A DNA stretch of 61,744 nt, the filler included. It is 6 parts of 6 records of this genome, joined end to end, with 100 filler letters (N's around TTAATTAATTAA, not from the genome) between each part and the next. Parts side by side here need not be neighbours in the genome. Positions count along the whole stretch, not along the records: positions 1 to 5,785 come from SRR31147125_13069; 5 more parts are not named here. One strand, given 5' to 3'. Below the pieces are notes generated by a model. It had not been told where the DNA came from and did no database searches. It was given only the letters and a program-made list of their open reading frames with translations. Position 1 is the stretch's first letter; the number at the start of each line of letters is the position of its first letter. Position numbers and translations under genes: made by a program. This document shows positions 1-5,785 of the stretch, in pieces.

Positions 1-11
1 TGGGCCTGCCA
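1..11 (+). tRNA. 3' terminus of tRNA-Gln (acceptor strand, discriminator, CCA); att boundary, partial
   Basis: TGGGCCT-G-CCA at the first base of the contig. It is the natural continuation of the tRNA-Gln fragment at 5753-5785 after about 3 missing T-stem bases. Confidence 0.65.
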
Positions 12-162
12 TTTTAATAACAACAAGCAAAATGCTGTTTTATATACAACACCGTGATTAAGCACTCGAATGACAAATATCGATTAAATCAATAATTGCC
101 TCACAATTCAAATTATAGATTAAAAGTATATTTATGTCAAGAGAAAGAGGTGTTTATATTTT

Positions 163-363
163 ATGAACAAATTAAAAGAGCTAAGAAAGAATAAGAAATT
201 AACACAAAATGATTTATCGAAAATCTTACAAGTACCTCAGAGTAATATTTCTAATTTCGAAAAAGGAAAATCGAAACTTAATGAGGATCAAATTATTCAA
301 CTTGTTAAAGTACTCGAATGTTCAGCAGATTATTTATTAGGCTTGATAGACAAGGACAAATAG
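163..363 (+). CDS. XRE/Cro-C1 family HTH transcriptional regulator
   Basis: LKELRK...LTQ.DL...L.V.QS.IS.FEKG...SADYLLGL pattern; RBS AGAGGTG upstream. Confidence 0.92.
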   Translation: MNKLKELRKNKKLTQNDLSKILQVPQSNISNFEKGKSKLNEDQIIQLVKVLECSADYLLGLIDKDK

Positions 364-388
364 AAGAACATTATTGATGTTCTTTTTT
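364..388 (+). terminator. Intrinsic terminator between HTH1 and the downstream ORF
   Basis: AAGAACAT-tattg-ATGTTCTT stem followed by a T-run, right after the stop codon. Confidence 0.55.
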
Positions 389-410
389 ATAATACAAAAG
401 GGGGATGATT

Positions 411-1259
411 ATGCCTTACATAAACATATATGAACGTTCACAATTATTTGATTTAGACATTGAATATGAATTGAACAATATCAAGGAAAAATTTAAAGGT
501 TCAATACCTATTTTTATTGCGATATTTCATAAGCGTAATTTTAAAGATTACATATTTAGAAATCATGCAACCACATTTAAAGAATATCTACATTTAAACT
601 ATGATAAGGTGTTGTTACAATATGAAGGAAATCACGAATATCAGTATAAATTTATTGCTGAATTTTTGATGAATTTGTATAATTATTTGGAAACATTATC
701 ACTTTATAATGACACATATAATTATTCATCAGTTGGACAACGAAATCATTTGTATGACTACTATTATTTATATTTTGAAAGAGTGAATAAAATACTTAGT
801 TTACTAGGTTGCAAATTCAAATTTATTAATCATTCAGATGATGAAAATTATGACCCTTTTGAACCAACTTATGCGATATTAATTGAAACCAATAGTTTAG
901 CCGAAAAAATAGCCTCATTAATTCCAAATAAAAAAATTAAATTTGATATCTTAAAATTTAATCATTACAATATTTCGATGGATGAAAAACAAGTACTAAT
1001 AGAAGATATGTATAAGTATTTTGAAGGTATTAGAAGAGATAGTGTAAGTACCGTAGCAAACACTTTAGCAAGTTTAATGAATAATGGTTTGAGACATGAT
1101 GCTGAAAACAAGATTAAGAATAAAGATATTCAAACCTATATTAACAAAGATAAAGACCGAGCTTTGAATGAAGCATATGATTTATTGATTGAGTGTTTTT
1201 ATCATAGTAATAATTTGTCAGTAATTAAAAAAGTAAAATCATTAATACCTAAAGACTAA
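411..1259 (+). CDS. Hypothetical protein, possible Abi-like (divergent HEPN-type) effector
   Basis: 282-aa ORF; GGGGG RBS favours ATG 411. The C-terminal helical region has FNH...EK..LI...YFE..R...LMNNGLRH, which recalls the NN.xRH motif of Abi-like proteins. Confidence 0.55.
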   Translation: MPYINIYERSQLFDLDIEYELNNIKEKFKGSIPIFIAIFHKRNFKDYIFRNHATTFKEYLHLNYDKVLLQYEGNHEYQYKFIAEFLMNLYNYLETLSLYNDTYNYSSVGQRNHLYDYYYLYFERVNKILSLLGCKFKFINHSDDENYDPFEPTYAILIETNSLAEKIASLIPNKKIKFDILKFNHYNISMDEKQVLIEDMYKYFEGIRRDSVSTVANTLASLMNNGLRHDAENKIKNKDIQTYINKDKDRALNEAYDLLIECFYHSNNLSVIKKVKSLIPKD

Positions 1260-1291
1260 ATTTTAGATTCGTATAAAGTGGAGTAGATGAT

Positions 1292-1534
1292 ATGAGTAAT
1301 AATTTAAATGAAATTAGAGTTATTAAAGGTTATACACAAAGTCAAATCGCACAAGTGTTAAAAGTTACCCAGAGCAATGTTTCAAACTATGAAAATGGTA
1401 ACTATAATTTGAATGAAAATCAAATTATTATATTGTGTAATTTTTTGTCATGCACTGCAGATCAATTATTAGGATTAAAAAAGTACAAAAAACACACAAA
1501 AAAATTTCTTCAATTGAGGAAAGTCAAAAGATAA
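1292..1534 (+). CDS. XRE family HTH regulator, paralogue of 163-363; possibly the N-terminus of an HTH-HEPN fusion
   Basis: LNEIR...TQSQIA..L.VTQSNVSNYENG...TADQLLGL; GGAG RBS; overlaps the next ORF in the -1 frame. Confidence 0.88.
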   Translation: MSNNLNEIRVIKGYTQSQIAQVLKVTQSNVSNYENGNYNLNENQIIILCNFLSCTADQLLGLKKYKKHTKKFLQLRKVKR

Positions 1535-2088
1535 ATCTTAAATTAAGATTTAGATTGTTTAATCTTATGGGTGCTTTTAACTATCTATATTCATATGAAG
1601 ATGACATCAAAAAATATGATGTCCATGATGTTGAAAATTTCAACATGGTATTTCAAAAAATGTTTAAAGATGCAGCATTGAGTTCAATAATAATTAAACT
1701 TGCTAATTTTTGGTTACAAAAAGATAGACACAGCAACGATATTAGTATATCTTCATTACTTGATTATTTAGATAGCAAATACACTGAAATATCACAATTA
1801 AAATTTAAATTTCATAATATAATAGCAGGTAATTCTGATTTGTTTAATAGACTTAAATTATCAAGGGATAAGGTCAATGCTCATATCACCAATTATGATT
1901 CAATAAAATTTGAATTTGCAAACAATAATATAGGGTTTTCAATTACTGATATTGCTTCATTTTCAAAGGATGAATTATTATTTTTGGTTAACAACTTAGC
2001 GGATATCATGCAAGAAATATTAGATATATATGTTTTATATGGCTATAAACATGAATTAAGAAACTTAAAAGAACTGAAACTTACTTAA
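1450..2088 (+). CDS. HEPN-domain protein (AbiU2-like putative RNase)
   Basis: Rx4-6H motif RDKVNAH (1864-1884), preceded by IIIKLANFW..KD...DISISSLL as in AbiU2-type HEPN. No clear RBS of its own, so the start is uncertain. Confidence 0.7.
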   Translation: MHCRSIIRIKKVQKTHKKISSIEESQKINLKLRFRLFNLMGAFNYLYSYEDDIKKYDVHDVENFNMVFQKMFKDAALSSIIIKLANFWLQKDRHSNDISISSLLDYLDSKYTEISQLKFKFHNIIAGNSDLFNRLKLSRDKVNAHITNYDSIKFEFANNNIGFSITDIASFSKDELLFLVNNLADIMQEILDIYVLYGYKHELRNLKELKLT

Positions 2089-2115
2089 TCATTAAATTTA
2101 TTTGAATAATGTATA

Positions 2116-2180
2116 ATAACCCAATACAATTTCATTGGGTTATCATATATAATAACCCTATACAGATGTATAGGGATTAT
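2116..2180. terminator. Two tandem related hairpins between convergent genes (bidirectional terminator or protein-binding palindromes)
   Basis: ATAACCCAAT-8nt-ATTGGGTTAT (2116-2143) and CCCTATACA-ga-TGTATAGGG (2156-2175). Confidence 0.5.
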
Positions 2181-2197
2181 TTATATAAATAATTATT

Positions 2198-3088
2198 CTA
2201 TTGTGGACACGGCTTTTTGTATACCCCCTGTTTAAATGTCGTATCATATGACTTCTTGATGAGTCTATTTGATACATGAGTGTATATTAAAGTAGTTTCG
2301 ATATTCTCATGGCCAAGTATTTCTTTTAACACAAAGACGTCCATGCCATTCTCATAAGCAAGTGTTGCAAATGTATGTCTAAACATGTGAGCATGTAATA
2401 AGTCTATATTTAACTCATGCTTTAGTTTGTTCATGAGATACCATAAATCACGTTTCATGCTCTCACGTTGTTTCAAAGAATTATACAATAAATACTTTCT
2501 GCCAAGGGGCGAAACATTAAGCATGAGTTTAATATACTTTTCGGATAGGTTTGTGTAAAATACAAATCTGTCTTTTTTTGTTTTGGTTGTTGTCAGTAGT
2601 ATCGACCTTTGAGTAAGGTTAATGTTCTTAATCTCAATATTGATTAACTCATTTGCTCTGACACCAGTCTCAAGCATTAAGAAAATCATTGTTTGATACA
2701 TGAGATTATTGTCTAAGCTGCTTTCGAGTTTATAAACATGATTCACTATTTTTTTTAATTGATCATGTTCAATGATATTAAAGTGTCTTTTTGTTTCCTT
2801 TAGTTTCTTAAATGACATCAGATATTCAAACTCAATATCATTAAATTTGTAAGCATTCTTTAAAATCAGCATATATTTGTTGATTGTTTTATTGCTAATA
2901 TCTTGTTTAAGCGTTAAAATTAAGCGATTTAAAGCATTTTTATCAAATTGCGAGGTATCTTTCACCTCCATTTCATTTAACACGAATAATAAGCGTTTTA
3001 TCTTTGCTCGCTCATATTCGCATGTTCCTTTAGCCTTATGTAAGAGACTATTATTGTAATAGTTCTCAAATAGTGTTGAAAATAACAT
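2198..3088 (-). CDS. Tyrosine recombinase/integrase
   Basis: Full catalytic set: TGVRANE (R), TKTKK (K), HMFRH (HxxR), LGH...TTLIY (H, Y); GGGAGG RBS. Confidence 0.95.
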   Translation of the reverse strand: MLFSTLFENYYNNSLLHKAKGTCEYERAKIKRLLFVLNEMEVKDTSQFDKNALNRLILTLKQDISNKTINKYMLILKNAYKFNDIEFEYLMSFKKLKETKRHFNIIEHDQLKKIVNHVYKLESSLDNNLMYQTMIFLMLETGVRANELINIEIKNINLTQRSILLTTTKTKKDRFVFYTNLSEKYIKLMLNVSPLGRKYLLYNSLKQRESMKRDLWYLMNKLKHELNIDLLHAHMFRHTFATLAYENGMDVFVLKEILGHENIETTLIYTHVSNRLIKKSYDTTFKQGVYKKPCPQ

Positions 3089-3201
3089 TTGTTTGTCCTC
3101 CCATATTGTTTAGTTATTTCGTAAGAATAATTATATTATGGTTTCTTACAAAAGTTTTCCATAAAATATGTGGTTAAATCAAAAATAAAGAAATATAATC
3201 A

Positions 3202-3229
3202 ATAGTATGTAAAAGTATTTACATACTAT
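3202..3229. promoter_or_regulatory. Perfect 12-bp inverted repeat upstream of the integrase (candidate operator)
   Basis: ATAGTATGTAAA-agta-TTTACATACTAT. Confidence 0.45.
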
Positions 3230-3524
3230 ATTTATATATGAAATGTGAGAATGTAAATGATGCAAACGCAATGTCTAATATTGTATATATATATTTATAT
3301 ACATATATTGTTTGCATTGATAATTCAATTCATTAAAATGGCTAGATTATCAATAATAAAAAAATGACACTTGATAGTGCCATTTCATAGTTTCAAATAT
3401 TTAACAATAGTAAGTTTTTAATGTTCGGCCATAAGATTAGAGCCTACAATAATTTAGTAATTGTAAACATTATCCCTCATGGTGTTGAGGATCCGTGGGG
3501 GTTTTAATTACAAATAATAAACTT

Positions 3525-3633
3525 ATAGTTTTTGCACTTTTATTTTTGCAATAGTTTTTGCATCGACTTTTATGATAATTTCAATGCTTATGAGTGCATT
3601 ATTGAATAGTGAAAATAACTATAGTTTATTGCA
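3525..3633. repeat. Iteron-like direct repeats ATAGTTTTTGCA
   Basis: Exact copies at 3525-3536 and 3551-3562; variants at 3541-3550 and 3621-3633. Confidence 0.45.
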
Positions 3634-3655
3634 TACGTATATTTTCAATAATATG

Positions 3656-4465
3656 CTATGAGAATAGAAAATTGTAAACATAATCGACAGCATAAGAATA
3701 GTGCCCAGATAATGATTCAGTTGATGGATATATAATGTATTGTTTATCAACAAAATAGTAATATCTTTTTGTTTTTTTTATTTCGTTGTTTGGTCGCTCT
3801 AAAGTTTTCATTAGAATAGTATAATAATCATTAAAATTAATTAAAGGGGTGAAGTTATTATCAAATACTTTTAAAAATAATTCTATATATTGCTCTTTAA
3901 TAAAAGGTTTAAAAATGCTTTTATAGTATTTAAACTCTGCATCTTTGATTAAATATAACACTTCCGTTTCTCTCCATTTTTTATAGCCTACTAAATAGTT
4001 ATATGTTGCTTGATAGTTCTTGTTATAAATCTCATAATAGATAAACATGAAGATATCTAAATCGGTCATATTTTCAGAAAAGAGTAATTCATTATTTAGT
4101 TTTTTATCAATCTCAAAAAAACTAATATAAGGGATTGTTTTTTTATTTTCTCCAATGGTTGAAAGGATAACATTATAAATTGTTTTAGTTTGTTTGTCCT
4201 CTTTTTGGAAAATACCAACATTTAAGTCATCTGGTATTAAATTGCTCACACGTTTAGTGACTTTATCAATGTATCTATATTTACTCCAACCGTGAAACCC
4301 TTTGTTGTGTTTAGATAGAAGAAATCCATCACGTTCTATTGTGATTTTCCCTAATTCACACTTAACTAGTTTTTCATTGTTTGCAAGTTTGATTTGAGAC
4401 TCTTGCATTTCGCCTTTGTGATTTTCAAATGTGCAAGTCTCATATCTATAAGTTTTGTTTCCCAT
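3656..4465 (-). CDS. Hypothetical protein (269 aa)
   Basis: Long ORF; GGAGGGA RBS supports ATG at 4465 (MGNKTYRY...); no family recognised. Confidence 0.75.
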   Translation of the reverse strand: MGNKTYRYETCTFENHKGEMQESQIKLANNEKLVKCELGKITIERDGFLLSKHNKGFHGWSKYRYIDKVTKRVSNLIPDDLNVGIFQKEDKQTKTIYNVILSTIGENKKTIPYISFFEIDKKLNNELLFSENMTDLDIFMFIYYEIYNKNYQATYNYLVGYKKWRETEVLYLIKDAEFKYYKSIFKPFIKEQYIELFLKVFDNNFTPLINFNDYYTILMKTLERPNNEIKKTKRYYYFVDKQYIIYPSTESLSGHYSYAVDYVYNFLFS

Positions 4466-4739
4466 AAAATCCCTCCAATAGATTATAAATATAATTTGGG
4501 TTATATCCTTCAATTTCAAAAAATGTTAGGGTGCTTATCATATCTTTTTTGTATAAAACAGCATAAACATATATTGCTAATTTTAAATCAATTACTCCAT
4601 GATTTGAATTGATAAAATTGATTGTTTTTAAACGAGCTTCTTCATATGTGATTATTTGATTTCTTTGTTTTTCAAATATAGATTGTTCAACGAAACTATT
4701 CGCAATAATCTTTATTATCTGTTTATATTCATTTTGCAT
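4446..4739 (-). CDS. Hypothetical protein (97 aa)
   Basis: AAGGAG RBS overlapping the rep stop; 3' end overlaps the next gene (operon-like coupling). Confidence 0.7.
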   Translation of the reverse strand: MQNEYKQIIKIIANSFVEQSIFEKQRNQIITYEEARLKTINFINSNHGVIDLKLAIYVYAVLYKKDMISTLTFFEIEGYNPNYIYNLLEGFYGKQNL

Positions 4740-4750
4740 ATGTTTACTCC

Positions 4751-5586
4751 TTACTTAATTCGTTTAAAAAGATTGTCTAATGCTTTATCCATTTGAGGGT
4801 CAATGTGTATTGGTTCAATTTCAATTTGATAAGTTAATTGATCATTCCATTTTTTCTCTCTCAAGTATCTTGTAGGTGCTGGAATAAATCGACCATTTTC
4901 CTTTTGCCACTCAATAGAAGAACAATGTTTTTTTAGATTGCATATGAGCGTATCAAAGGTATCATTGTCAAGGTTTAACTTTTTGAATTGCTTATACGCC
5001 GTCTCATAACCTGTATGTTTAGGATAGGTTTGCCAAAAATCTTGGAATTGAGAATCATTTAAAGAAAAATCATTTTCCTTAGTTTCCGCACTCTTTTCCC
5101 TAGGGGGATTAAGGGGGTATTAATATCTTTATTTTTAATATCTTTACTCTTAACTCTTAACTCTATACTCTTGGGAACATTTGTTCCTAATTTGTTCCCA
5201 TTGTTTTTTCTTGCTTCTGCAACACGTTTTGCTGCTCCTGTTTGATAACCTACCATTGCTTCATGATTGGCTATTTTTAATGTTCCGCCTTGTTCTTCAT
5301 AGACAAGTCCTAAACCTTTGTATAACTCTAAAGCAACTCGTATTGTGTCAATGTCAAAGTATTTTGTATCACGTTGTATTTTTTGAATATCATATTTGAT
5401 AATCATATCGCCTACTTTATCCTCTAAAAGCCCATTTGTATTTGCTGTGTTAAGACACAACATTTGATATAAAACTACGTAATTGCTTCCGTTTTTTTGA
5501 GACATTAAAAAGTCTATTGCATTTTGATAAAAAAAGTCGGTTTCTAATTTTATCCACCAATATTTAGTGTTATCGTTTTTCGCCAT
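4751..5586 (-). CDS. Phage replisome-organiser-type replication initiator, one frameshift near 5098-5100
   Basis: N-terminus MAKNDNTKYWWIKLETDFF...GSNYVVLY.ML after a GGAGG RBS. A C-terminus missed by the ORF track reads FQDFWQTYPKHTG...WQKENGRFIPAPTRYLREKKWND in another frame, stop at 4751. One extra base gives about 278 aa. Confidence 0.85.
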
Positions 5587-5612
5587 AATTAAATCCTCCA
5601 ATTATATTTAAA

Positions 5613-5701
5613 AGCGACTTAATACGGTATATTGAAGCATCTGGCACGAAACCTCAATATACCTTATTAAATCGCTCTTTTTTTGTTGATTACTCGTGCC
5701 A
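5613..5701 (-). promoter_or_regulatory. Structured rep leader: 23-bp hairpin with loop complementary to a distal 8-mer (attenuator or antisense-control candidate)
   Basis: Arms 5613-5635 and 5654-5676; loop TGGCACGA (5642-5649) complementary to TCGTGCCA (5694-5701); T-runs after the stem on both strands. Confidence 0.55.
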
Positions 5702-5752
5702 AATAATCAAATAAAAAAACACTCAATGTTGAGTGCTTAATCTTACCGATAC

Positions 5753-5785
5753 GGGCTTTGACTCCCTCATCGTTGGTTCAAATCC
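5753..5785 (+). tRNA. tRNA-Gln(UUG) 3'-half fragment (att core), not an intact gene
   Basis: Anticodon loop CTTTGAC (5756-5762), TCCCT, T-arm GTTGG-TTCAAAT-CC. Upstream sequence has no D-arm or acceptor 5' strand. Confidence 0.8.

Follow-up and report, generated by a model that had tools for sequence, protein, structure and literature searches.

A 5.8-kb tRNA-Gln-integrated element of Acholeplasmataceae that may be a hitch-hiker of L2-like plasmaviruses

The element and its genes

The stretch of DNA analysed here, hereafter the window, is 61,744 nts long and consists of six contigs joined by five N/TTAATTAATTAA spacers. This report concerns contig 1 (positions 1-5785), a small mobile element bounded by pieces of a tRNA-Gln gene. 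The reading that we favour, with a probability of roughly 0.55, is that contig 1 is one whole integrative element of about 5.79 kb from an Acholeplasmataceae bacterium, probably dependent on L2-like plasmaviruses as helpers. Only 3 nts, lost at the contig break, are missing from it. Functionally, the element resembles a minimal satellite or integrative plasmid, and it may be the first hitch-hiker of the L2 virus family. It is compared below with four homologous elements, two in genomes (G001 and G101) and two at metagenome loci (L046 and L049).

The first gene of contig 1 (163-363, + strand) encodes an Xre/cI-type helix-turn-helix (HTH) protein of 66 amino acids (aa), the putative repressor of the element, with homologues in the four other elements. 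A tyrosine integrase of 296 aa is encoded in mid-element on the opposite strand (2198-3088, - strand; PF00589, E 4.9e-31). Its residues R144, H234, R237, H260 and Y269, and also a K, are invariant in alignment A1 (window, G001 and G101), which gives it the catalytic set of tyrosine recombinases (R, H-x-x-R, H/W and Y). The third backbone gene (4751-5601, - strand) encodes a replication initiator of 283 aa, once an insertion described below is included. The N-terminal part of this protein is a Phage_rep_org_N domain (PF09681, E 3e-10) and its C-terminal part matches phage initiator families (phrog_9474, E 2.4e-17, and phrog_270); with the insertion, both parts lie in one protein, as in phage replisome organisers. 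Relatives of the initiator occur in 70 phage records versus 14 plasmid records, and several of the plasmid-record matches are annotated phage replisome-organiser proteins on records of 33-51 kb.

Between integrase and initiator lie two orphan genes, both on the - strand. The gene orf287 (3656-4519), at the end of the rep operon, encodes 287 aa from a TTG codon or 269 aa from an ATG at 4465. It has no match in a word-based search and no usable match in the Atlas, and an exhaustive HMMER search of 1.84 billion representatives returned 1 match (E 5.6e-6), which has no Pfam family; a single-sequence AlphaFold2 (AF2) model is unusable (pLDDT 44.5). The second orphan gene (4446-4739) encodes 97 aa without a family in Pfam, PHROGs, PADLOC or NCBIfam. 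Structural, packaging, relaxase and partition genes were sought with Pfam, PHROGs and NCBIfam, the scope of all such negatives below, and none was found among the proteins of the window, in agreement with the sequence-only reading made earlier of this DNA, which had recognised no structural, packaging or relaxase gene; genes of these three kinds are also missing from the four relatives. None of the 9 genes of contig 1 encodes a transmembrane-like segment; ORF2, ORF12 and ORF13 of Plasmavirus L2 each have one.

In the window, the initiator gene and one cargo gene appear as frameshifted pairs. Both were compared with X1, the public run that holds 0.99 of the sampled words of contig 1 (Logan contigs, k=31). 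X1 is not independent of the sample, because it is possibly the source run. An X1 contig of 5804 nts, at a depth of 385, spans 1-5785 with 0 mismatches and two insertions, and extends 17 nts past position 1. The insertions are an extra A in the A7 run at 1498-1504 (A8) and an extra G in the G5 run at 5113-5117 (G6). Because they restore the frame, as checked by the lengths of the open reading frames (ORFs), both apparent pairs are single ORFs, and the two frameshifts of the window are not real. The gene content is otherwise as first described, except that its "split" genes are single ORFs and that only one of its two cassettes has Abi similarity.

That cassette is cargo gene 2 (1292-2088, + strand, with the X1 insertion), which encodes a 265-aa protein with an HTH fused to an AbiU2-like HEPN domain. 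The latter matches PF18734 just below threshold (E 4.9e-6, 26.6 bits, cut-off 26.8) and contains an R-x5-H motif, with no Abi match in PADLOC and no homologue by word-based search. The HTH part (1292-1480) shares 52% identity with the repressor of the element and 48-63% with the HTHs of the other four elements. It is a paralogue of that repressor, so that a putative nuclease carries a repressor-like DNA-binding domain.

Cargo gene 1 (orf284; 405-1259, + strand) encodes an all-helical protein of 284 aa with 5 homologues (39-57% identity) and no family match in Pfam, PHROGs, PADLOC or NCBIfam. A copy that is 28% identical adjoins an HTH beside tRNA-Trp in genome G016. With the AF2 model of orf284 (pLDDT 79), Foldseek finds nothing in the PDB at E <= 0.001, and VIA-align wide returns helical matches of a generic kind, the best at Z 8.3; the RnlA HEPN region scores Z 5.8. 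The nearest named Atlas clusters are AbiJ N-terminal domains (0.83-0.86), which is a lead and no more. Profile similarity between orf284 and the AbiU2-like domain was considered and rejected (probability 0.1%).

Both cargo genes occupy a slot, running from the HTH gene to the 3′ end of the integrase gene, whose content differs in every element. It holds orf284 and the HTH-HEPN gene in the window, a 157-aa ORF in G101, ORFs of 240 and 84 aa plus duplications in L046, a 208-aa ORF in L049 and about 630 nts in G001; the cargo genes of the other elements have no PADLOC or Pfam family. A defence role for the window cargo is suggested by its position in this slot, as judged from the related tRNA-Lys element of G001 described below, and by the sub-threshold AbiU2 match. 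Hence, of the defence-like cargo proposed earlier, one AbiU2/HEPN match and the position remain, while the 284-aa gene is without a family.

Attachment ends in tRNA-Gln

Contig 1 starts with TGGGCCTGCCA and ends with the anticodon-loop-to-T-loop string of a tRNA-Gln. Its first 11 nts are the 3′ acceptor/CCA end of tRNA-Gln(UUG). The right end of the attachment (att) core comprises these last 11 nts of the tRNA (acceptor 3′ strand, discriminator and CCA) and 2 further nts (1-13, + strand), and its left part is a partial tRNA-Gln(UUG) from the anticodon stem/loop to the T-loop (5753-5785, + strand). ARAGORN reports 0 tRNA genes over the whole window, which is what a partial copy in two pieces should give.

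The att arms of the window and of the four homologous integrated elements (G001, G101, L046 and L049) were aligned in A2 and A3. The last 33 nts of contig 1 are identical to the element-borne partial tRNA-Gln(UUG) in three of the four relatives (G101, L046 and L049) and differ at 2 positions from that of G001. In all four, the gap between the two tRNA pieces is exactly 3 nts (AGC in three, TGC in one), which agrees with the initial proposal that the contig ends are parts of one tRNA-Gln 3′ half and fixes the number of missing nts. The tRNA likeness starts at the same base (GGG followed by the anticodon loop) in 5/5 elements, as had been noted for contig 1, and what lies upstream in each is a hairpin, with no D-arm.

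The same structure emerges from the public runs. In X1, a 46-nt unitig of depth 700 consists of 5756-5785 plus 16 nts, and a 2061-nt contig of depth 388.6, representing the chromosomal flank, has 5756-5785 at its end and no other likeness to the window. With k=31, the overlap would be 30+30-46=14, and 17=14+3, leading to a repeat of 46 nts and a gap of 3 nts (the extension letters themselves were not seen). The X1 lengths are thereby consistent with one model, in which element and chromosome both lead into a 46-nt repeat and both lead out of it, the element contig having 30 nts of the repeat at either end. In another run, X2, which holds only short pieces related to contig 1, a contig with its end at the same 30-mer has a tRNA 5′ half just before it; a third run, X3, has no matching piece. 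The repeat common to element and host tRNA begins at 5756. Direct repeats at the tRNA ends are directly visible in the four relatives (L001, L032, L046 and L049), and the 46-nt repeat of the window is deduced from the X1 unitigs. Contig 1 thus carries a repeat of the 3′ part of a tRNA at both ends, as do tRNA-integrating elements.

A family of mini elements in Acholeplasmataceae

A search with the integrase revealed close relatives in G001 (L001, an Acholeplasmataceae chromosome; 66% identity), in G101 (L032, same family; 62%) and at four metagenome loci (59-62%). The seven loci amount to five distinct elements including the window, because L048 duplicates G101 and L047 is a fragment like L046. 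The search for integrase and Rep relatives with the same gene order, suggested with the sequence-only reading, hence yielded four, two in Acholeplasmataceae genomes and two on metagenome contigs. The four other elements measure 4.8-6.8 kb and are embedded between ordinary genes in long chromosomal contigs (78 kb to 1.6 Mb). All five follow the order tRNA-Gln, Xre HTH, variable slot, integrase (opposite strand), small variable genes, initiator and partial tRNA-Gln(UUG). The layout of contig 1, with its integrase in mid-element, had been called atypical; this position of the integrase and an HTH next to att are normal for mini elements and for L2-like proviruses.

The boundaries can be followed in each relative. 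The G001 element (4.81 kb) extends from a full tRNA-Gln(UUG) to a 62-nt repeat of its 3′ part, and L049 has an exact 30-nt repeat with copies 5316 nts apart. The element of G101, like that of L046, is flanked by a tRNA-Gln(CUG) copy on either side and keeps the partial Gln(UUG) at its Rep end, with no assignable crossover point. Identity to the window proteins is 59-66% for the integrase, 60-74% for the HTH and, for the N-terminal domain of Rep, 79% in G001 and 35% in G101. The initiator is intact in all four relatives (L001, L032, L046 and L049), with 286-296 aa.

Synteny links the flanks of L049, L046 and L032 to locus L038 (G171), where the tRNA cluster reads His-Gln(UUG)...Leu(UAG) without an insert. 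Some lineages thus carry an insert at this site and others do not. Both L038 and L039 show the tRNA cluster without an insert, i.e., the locus is empty in two related genomes. The same locus is thus found occupied and empty across genomes. With four other elements of similar size, the same backbone and tRNA-Gln boundaries, the earlier proposal that contig 1 is a whole minimal element holds.

The family is rare. The initiator finds matches in 3/172 species genomes of the family (E <= 1e-10), one of which (G048) matches by the N-terminal domain only, at 37-44% identity and in three copies; integrases with more than 60% identity occur in only 2/172. At the DNA level, whole contig 1 has no match by distant blastn among 50,697 phage and 72,556 plasmid records, and Rfam gives 0 matches on 1-5785 at E <= 1. 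The Acholeplasma-like host that had been proposed is in line with the relatives, as all the close ones lie in Acholeplasmataceae or on contigs with the Trp/His/Gln/Leu tRNA cluster of this family.

The rest of the window has another source. The G+C content of contig 1 is 25-29%, compared with 33-46% for the other five contigs, and 5886-61744 encodes a hybrid histidine kinase, FabF, three arylsulfatases, a rhamnosidase and polygalacturonase-like enzymes, a gene content that points to a polysaccharide-degrading bacterium. Because of its G+C content and the gene content of the other contigs, contig 1 is foreign to this bin and has been mis-binned with the rest.

Two further observations concern the relatives. 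A gene for an HNH/NUMOD4 endonuclease lies downstream of the initiator in three of the five elements (L032:11976-12356, L046:5942-6325 and L049:6508-6897; 71-85% identity) and is absent from the window and from G001. The cargo slot of L046 (L046:8900-10900) contains a 540-bp duplication, a copy of the palindrome described below and a 77%-identical fragment of an integrase gene, pieces that look like traces of recombination between two elements.

Kinship with Plasmavirus L2

The virions of Plasmavirus L2 have no capsid and contain one to three genome copies, and L2-related proviruses reside in tRNA genes (PMC12662186). Plasmaviridae comprises a single classified species; the annotated L2 ORFs all lie on one strand, and other known viruses contain relatives of its integrase only (PMC12662186).

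The integrase of contig 1 has matches in 64 of the 50,697 phage records searched, the best being with Plasmavirus L2 of Acholeplasma laidlawii (31% identity, 89% query coverage, E 7e-23). When 25 integrases were placed in a maximum-likelihood tree, those of the five mini elements grouped as a single clade (100/100), nested within the L2-type radiation of Acholeplasmataceae, to which L2 itself belongs. The kinship extends to the repressor. An unannotated Xre-type HTH ORF of L2 (L040:5045-5263, - strand) adjoins the putative attP. It shares 70% identity with the HTH of a G101 provirus of the L2-like type, 41% with the window HTH and 41-48% with the HTHs of the elements.

Integrase relatives at 27-40% identity are present in 17/172 Acholeplasmataceae genomes (E <= 1e-30), inside proviruses. 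These L2-like proviruses carry homologues of L2 ORF1, ORF3, ORF4, ORF10, ORF11, ORF12 and ORF13/14, lie beside tRNA-Arg, tRNA-Lys or the Trp/His/Gln/Leu cluster and follow the order tRNA-HTH-integrase. A third link is an AT-rich palindromic motif about 195 nts upstream of int (3279-3312), further copies of which occur in the annotated ori1 of L2, in the elements of G101 and L046 and, again upstream of int, in L2-like proviruses. Its exact 18-mer core, which the annotated ori1 of L2 holds, has 9 copies in 7/172 genomes, of which 6 belong to the G101 element or to L2-like proviruses, versus 2 matches for the reversed control. In one genome, G101, a mini element coexists with an L2-like provirus that has homologues of ORF1, ORF3 and ORF14.

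The kinship ends there. When L2 proteins and elements were compared by tblastn in both directions, only the integrase and the HTH matched (E <= 1e-3). Local matches to L2 ORF6 from orf287, G101 o144 and G001 o196 (E 0.006-0.009) are weak and below significance. A relation between the initiator and L2 ORF11, both of which weakly match phrog_186, was rejected (hhalign probability 0.4%).

Two proviral arrangements were observed in passing. G001 contains a larger second element beside tRNA-Lys(CUU) (L035:2854-17444), with an HTH followed, in the HTH-integrase slot, by genes for a type II restriction enzyme, Dam methylase and GmrSD/HEC-06; beyond these it has an ORF1-like gene similar to that of L2 and encodes a List_Bact_rpt surface protein and an initiator of the Rep_trans type. 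In G062 (L033/L034; G062:C1:425000-441000), two L2-like provirus modules, each with ORF3, palindrome and integrase, lie 12.9 kb apart with identical match statistics and may represent a tandem provirus.

Comparison with known mobile elements

The element shares with L2 an integrase of the same radiation, a homologous Xre HTH, integration in tRNA genes, the order att-HTH-(cargo)-int and the ori1 palindrome. It differs from L2 in being about half the size (5.8 versus 12 kb), in having no homologues of ORF1-4 and ORF7-14 and only a marginal, local similarity to ORF6 (E 0.006), in encoding no membrane protein, and in its own lambda-O/DnaD-type initiator, unrelated to L2 proteins. Of the features of Plasmaviridae, the L2-type integrase/HTH module and the tRNA-linked provirus layout are present, and the envelope ORF13 and ORF14 as well as ORF1 and ORF3 are absent. 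Because these defining particle genes were sought and are absent, the element is not a plasmavirus.

The PICMIs of Vibrionaceae (minimalist chromosomal islands inducible by phages) resemble the element in being small, integrated and endowed with minimal excision/replication genes and defence-type cargo, without capsid-remodelling genes (PMC10803314). As described there, they differ in their insertion next to fis, AlpA regulation and tailed virulent phage helpers (PMC10803314), whereas the element lies in tRNA-Gln, has an Xre repressor and Mollicute-related hosts, and would have a putative plasmavirus helper. The plasmid-like satellites pSSVi/pSSVx are likewise small circular elements without a full virion module that ride the flexible, non-icosahedral particles of spindle-shaped Fuselloviridae (bioRxiv 10.1101/2025.02.15.638363).

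Their hosts are archaeal and their genes unrelated to those of the element. The size of pSSVi is about 5.7 kb, and it integrates in a tRNA gene. Phage-inducible chromosomal islands (PICIs), including the Staphylococcus aureus pathogenicity islands (SaPIs), of Firmicutes share with the element an integrase, a repressor, an own replication module and accessory anti-phage cargo, and lack virion genes. The element is a third to half of the usual PICI size, and no pri-rep primase-helicase, terS, capsid-size ppi/cpm or AlpA/Stl-type gene was found among its 9 proteins. Integrative mobilisable elements (IMEs) are recognised by a relaxase, or an RCR-type substitute for it, and an oriT; neither a relaxase nor a Rep_trans-type match was found in the window proteins, and an oriT is not recognisable by sequence alone. 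The element is neither a PICI nor an IME, because the defining genes of both are absent. No literature linking phage satellites with Acholeplasma was found in a search of main texts.

Replication signals and promoter

The initiator resembles lambda O and SPP1 G38P in its N-terminal Phage_rep_org_N domain, its C-terminal phage initiator domain and the tandem repeats in the linker of its gene, and differs in that no partner helicase loader or helicase gene follows it. The iteron-like repeats of the linker (5120-5172) have periods of 15 (x3.1) and 7 (x4.6), and arrays lie at the same place in 4/5 elements. The lambda origin lies in the O gene, and by likeness to lambda O-type initiators the linker repeats are a candidate origin. 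Contig 1 contains no exact DnaA box, and the 23 one-mismatch boxes across the window do not exceed chance (20.9 expected).

A long hairpin with 26-nt arms (5610-5679, - strand) separates the initiator start codon from the att end. It is present in 4/5 elements, with four pairs changed on both sides (z -8.15 for 5586-5760). Just inside the partial tRNA, 5/5 elements have a terminator-like hairpin with a T-run, located in contig 1 on the rep-sense strand (5717-5738; with the arm motif GAGTGCTTAATC at 5731-5742, the feature covers 5717-5742, - strand). The motif GATTAAGCACTC at 56-67 (+ strand) is the exact inverted repeat of 5731-5742, and its core AAGCACTC is kept in the X arm of 5/5 elements.

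A consensus promoter, TTGACA-17-TATAAT, matching at 12/12 positions, lies beside the HTH gene and is directed towards the att core (112-140, - strand). Both hexamers are invariant in 5/5 elements (A2 columns 111-117 and 136-140). Once the element is integrated, this promoter is directed outwards, in antisense orientation to the rebuilt tRNA-Gln.

Proposed life cycle and competing explanations

In the favoured reading, the tyrosine integrase would recombine a 46-nt attP core, from the anticodon loop of tRNA-Gln(UUG) to CCA plus 2 nts, with the host tRNA-Gln, which would rebuild the tRNA at one end and leave the partial copy at the initiator end. The backbone, whose order is conserved in the five elements, runs from att through the leftward promoter with operator-like repeats, Xre HTH, cargo slot, integrase and small variable genes to the lambda-O/DnaD-type initiator with iterons in its own linker, the leader hairpins and att. 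In the excised circle, the initiator would drive theta replication from the in-gene iterons. The promoter at 140-112 meets the initiator operon only in the circle, so that excision could switch replication on, an idea that we consider doubtful. Tentatively, the element may be a satellite that hitch-hikes from cell to cell in the capsid-less particles budded by an L2-like plasmavirus resident in the same host. No capsid-size trick would be needed, because helper particles can hold one to three genome equivalents. The cargo (the HTH-HEPN fusion and the 284-aa protein) would act in exclusion or abortive infection.

Helper dependence is favoured because a lysogeny module and a cis motif are common to the element and L2, no transfer function is present, the capsid-less particle is size-tolerant and a mini element and an L2-like provirus are co-resident in G101. 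The element also has the general composition of a phage satellite, combining its own integration and replication functions with the absence of virion genes. Taken to its full extent, the proposal would make these elements the first satellites of a capsid-less enveloped bacterial virus, with a plasmavirus lysogeny module, an ori1-type palindrome, an excision-switched initiator, exit in helper vesicles and an anti-phage cargo that pays the host; so complete a picture is advanced with still more reserve than the hitch-hiking itself.

Several results weigh against this reading. Among the 2.9 million viral contigs of IMG/VR, Rep has no match and the integrase alignment yields 27 loci, all at <=27% identity, with no close relative. 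The palindrome is missing from the G001 and L049 elements, being present in 3/5 mini elements, and lies upstream of int in only one of them, the window. The initiator is unrelated to any L2 protein, which fits an autonomous plasmid equally well. G001, although a carrier of a mini element, has 0 ORF3-like matches and only the tRNA-Lys element with an ORF1-like gene, so that a mini element and a full L2-like provirus occur together in 1/2 genomes, versus a base rate of 18/172. A conserved terminator-like hairpin lies between promoter and initiator in the circle, which argues against simple read-through. Finally, the ratio of element to flank depth in X1 is 0.99, with the depth of the repeat near the sum of both, implying that there is no extrachromosomal amplification and that the element was not replicating in the X1 sample. 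The own replicon claimed by the sequence-only reading is hence supported by an initiator intact after correction from X1, but not by replication in that sample. A single integrated copy per chromosome gives these depths, as would a strictly 1:1 mix of circle and empty site; the k=31 contigs cannot separate attL+attR from attP+attB, because the repeat of 46 nts is longer than k-1.

Some of these results would be expected of an autonomous integrative plasmid that excises and replicates by its own initiator without a viral helper, persisting or spreading through vertical descent, through cell fusion, by transformation or in the ordinary membrane vesicles of a wall-less host, its L2 likeness reflecting a shared pool of integrase/repressor modules. 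This alternative, which is unlikely although a serious one, accounts for the phage-type initiator with in-gene repeats, for the fact that nothing beyond int and HTH is common with L2, for the lack of close relatives in viral-fraction contigs and for G001 being without an ORF3-like gene. However, a depth equal to that of the flank is not plasmid-like in the sample, and neither a partition nor a mobilisation or relaxase gene was found. Moreover, the cis palindrome of the element is also found in the L2 ori1 region and in proviruses, and the relatives of the initiator are mostly phage.

The plasmavirus-like integrase, HTH, tRNA target and palindrome, together with the loss of all virion genes, might also be those of a deleted L2-like provirus that acquired a foreign initiator and now decays, non-mobile and fixed at tRNA-Gln. 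This is improbable, as five distinct copies keep int, HTH and initiator intact at 35-79% protein identity, along with conserved att arms, promoter and hairpins, and such conservation implies purifying selection on a functional unit. Furthermore, both apparent frameshifts are absent from the 385x assembly, and related genomes differ in whether the site is occupied or empty. The location of contig 1 in the bin of another organism would be compatible with an assembly artefact, a chimera or a piece of a larger prophage whose tRNA-like ends are coincidental. That explanation is largely refuted and very improbable, since a second assembly yields the same 5.8-kb unit between the same 30-mers and the same tRNA pieces delimit four homologous elements within long chromosomal contigs.

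These half-size elements, which share the integrase, repressor, layout and origin-region motif of L2 and none of its particle genes, give a first handle on the cis and trans functions that lysogeny and DNA export require in plasmaviruses, and on whether viruses without a capsid to exploit have satellites. The elements are the smallest self-contained integrate-and-replicate modules yet seen in Acholeplasmataceae and could become vectors for these wall-less bacteria.

Other non-coding features

The convergent cargo and integrase genes are separated by a bidirectional terminator-like hairpin (2156-2175), which lies inside a 36-nt tandem repeat (2112-2188). Upstream of int, a non-coding region of 567 nts (3089-3655) contains AT-rich inverted repeats and, past the rep operon, terminator-like hairpins at 3361-3386 and 3474-3491 (- strand). 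An exact 12-mer is directly repeated at 3525 and 3551. Positions 3525-3562 and 3608-3633 also match a 4229-nt contig of X1 (depth 189) and two 152-nt contigs of X2, and this short region may be a cis site common to another small element of the sample.

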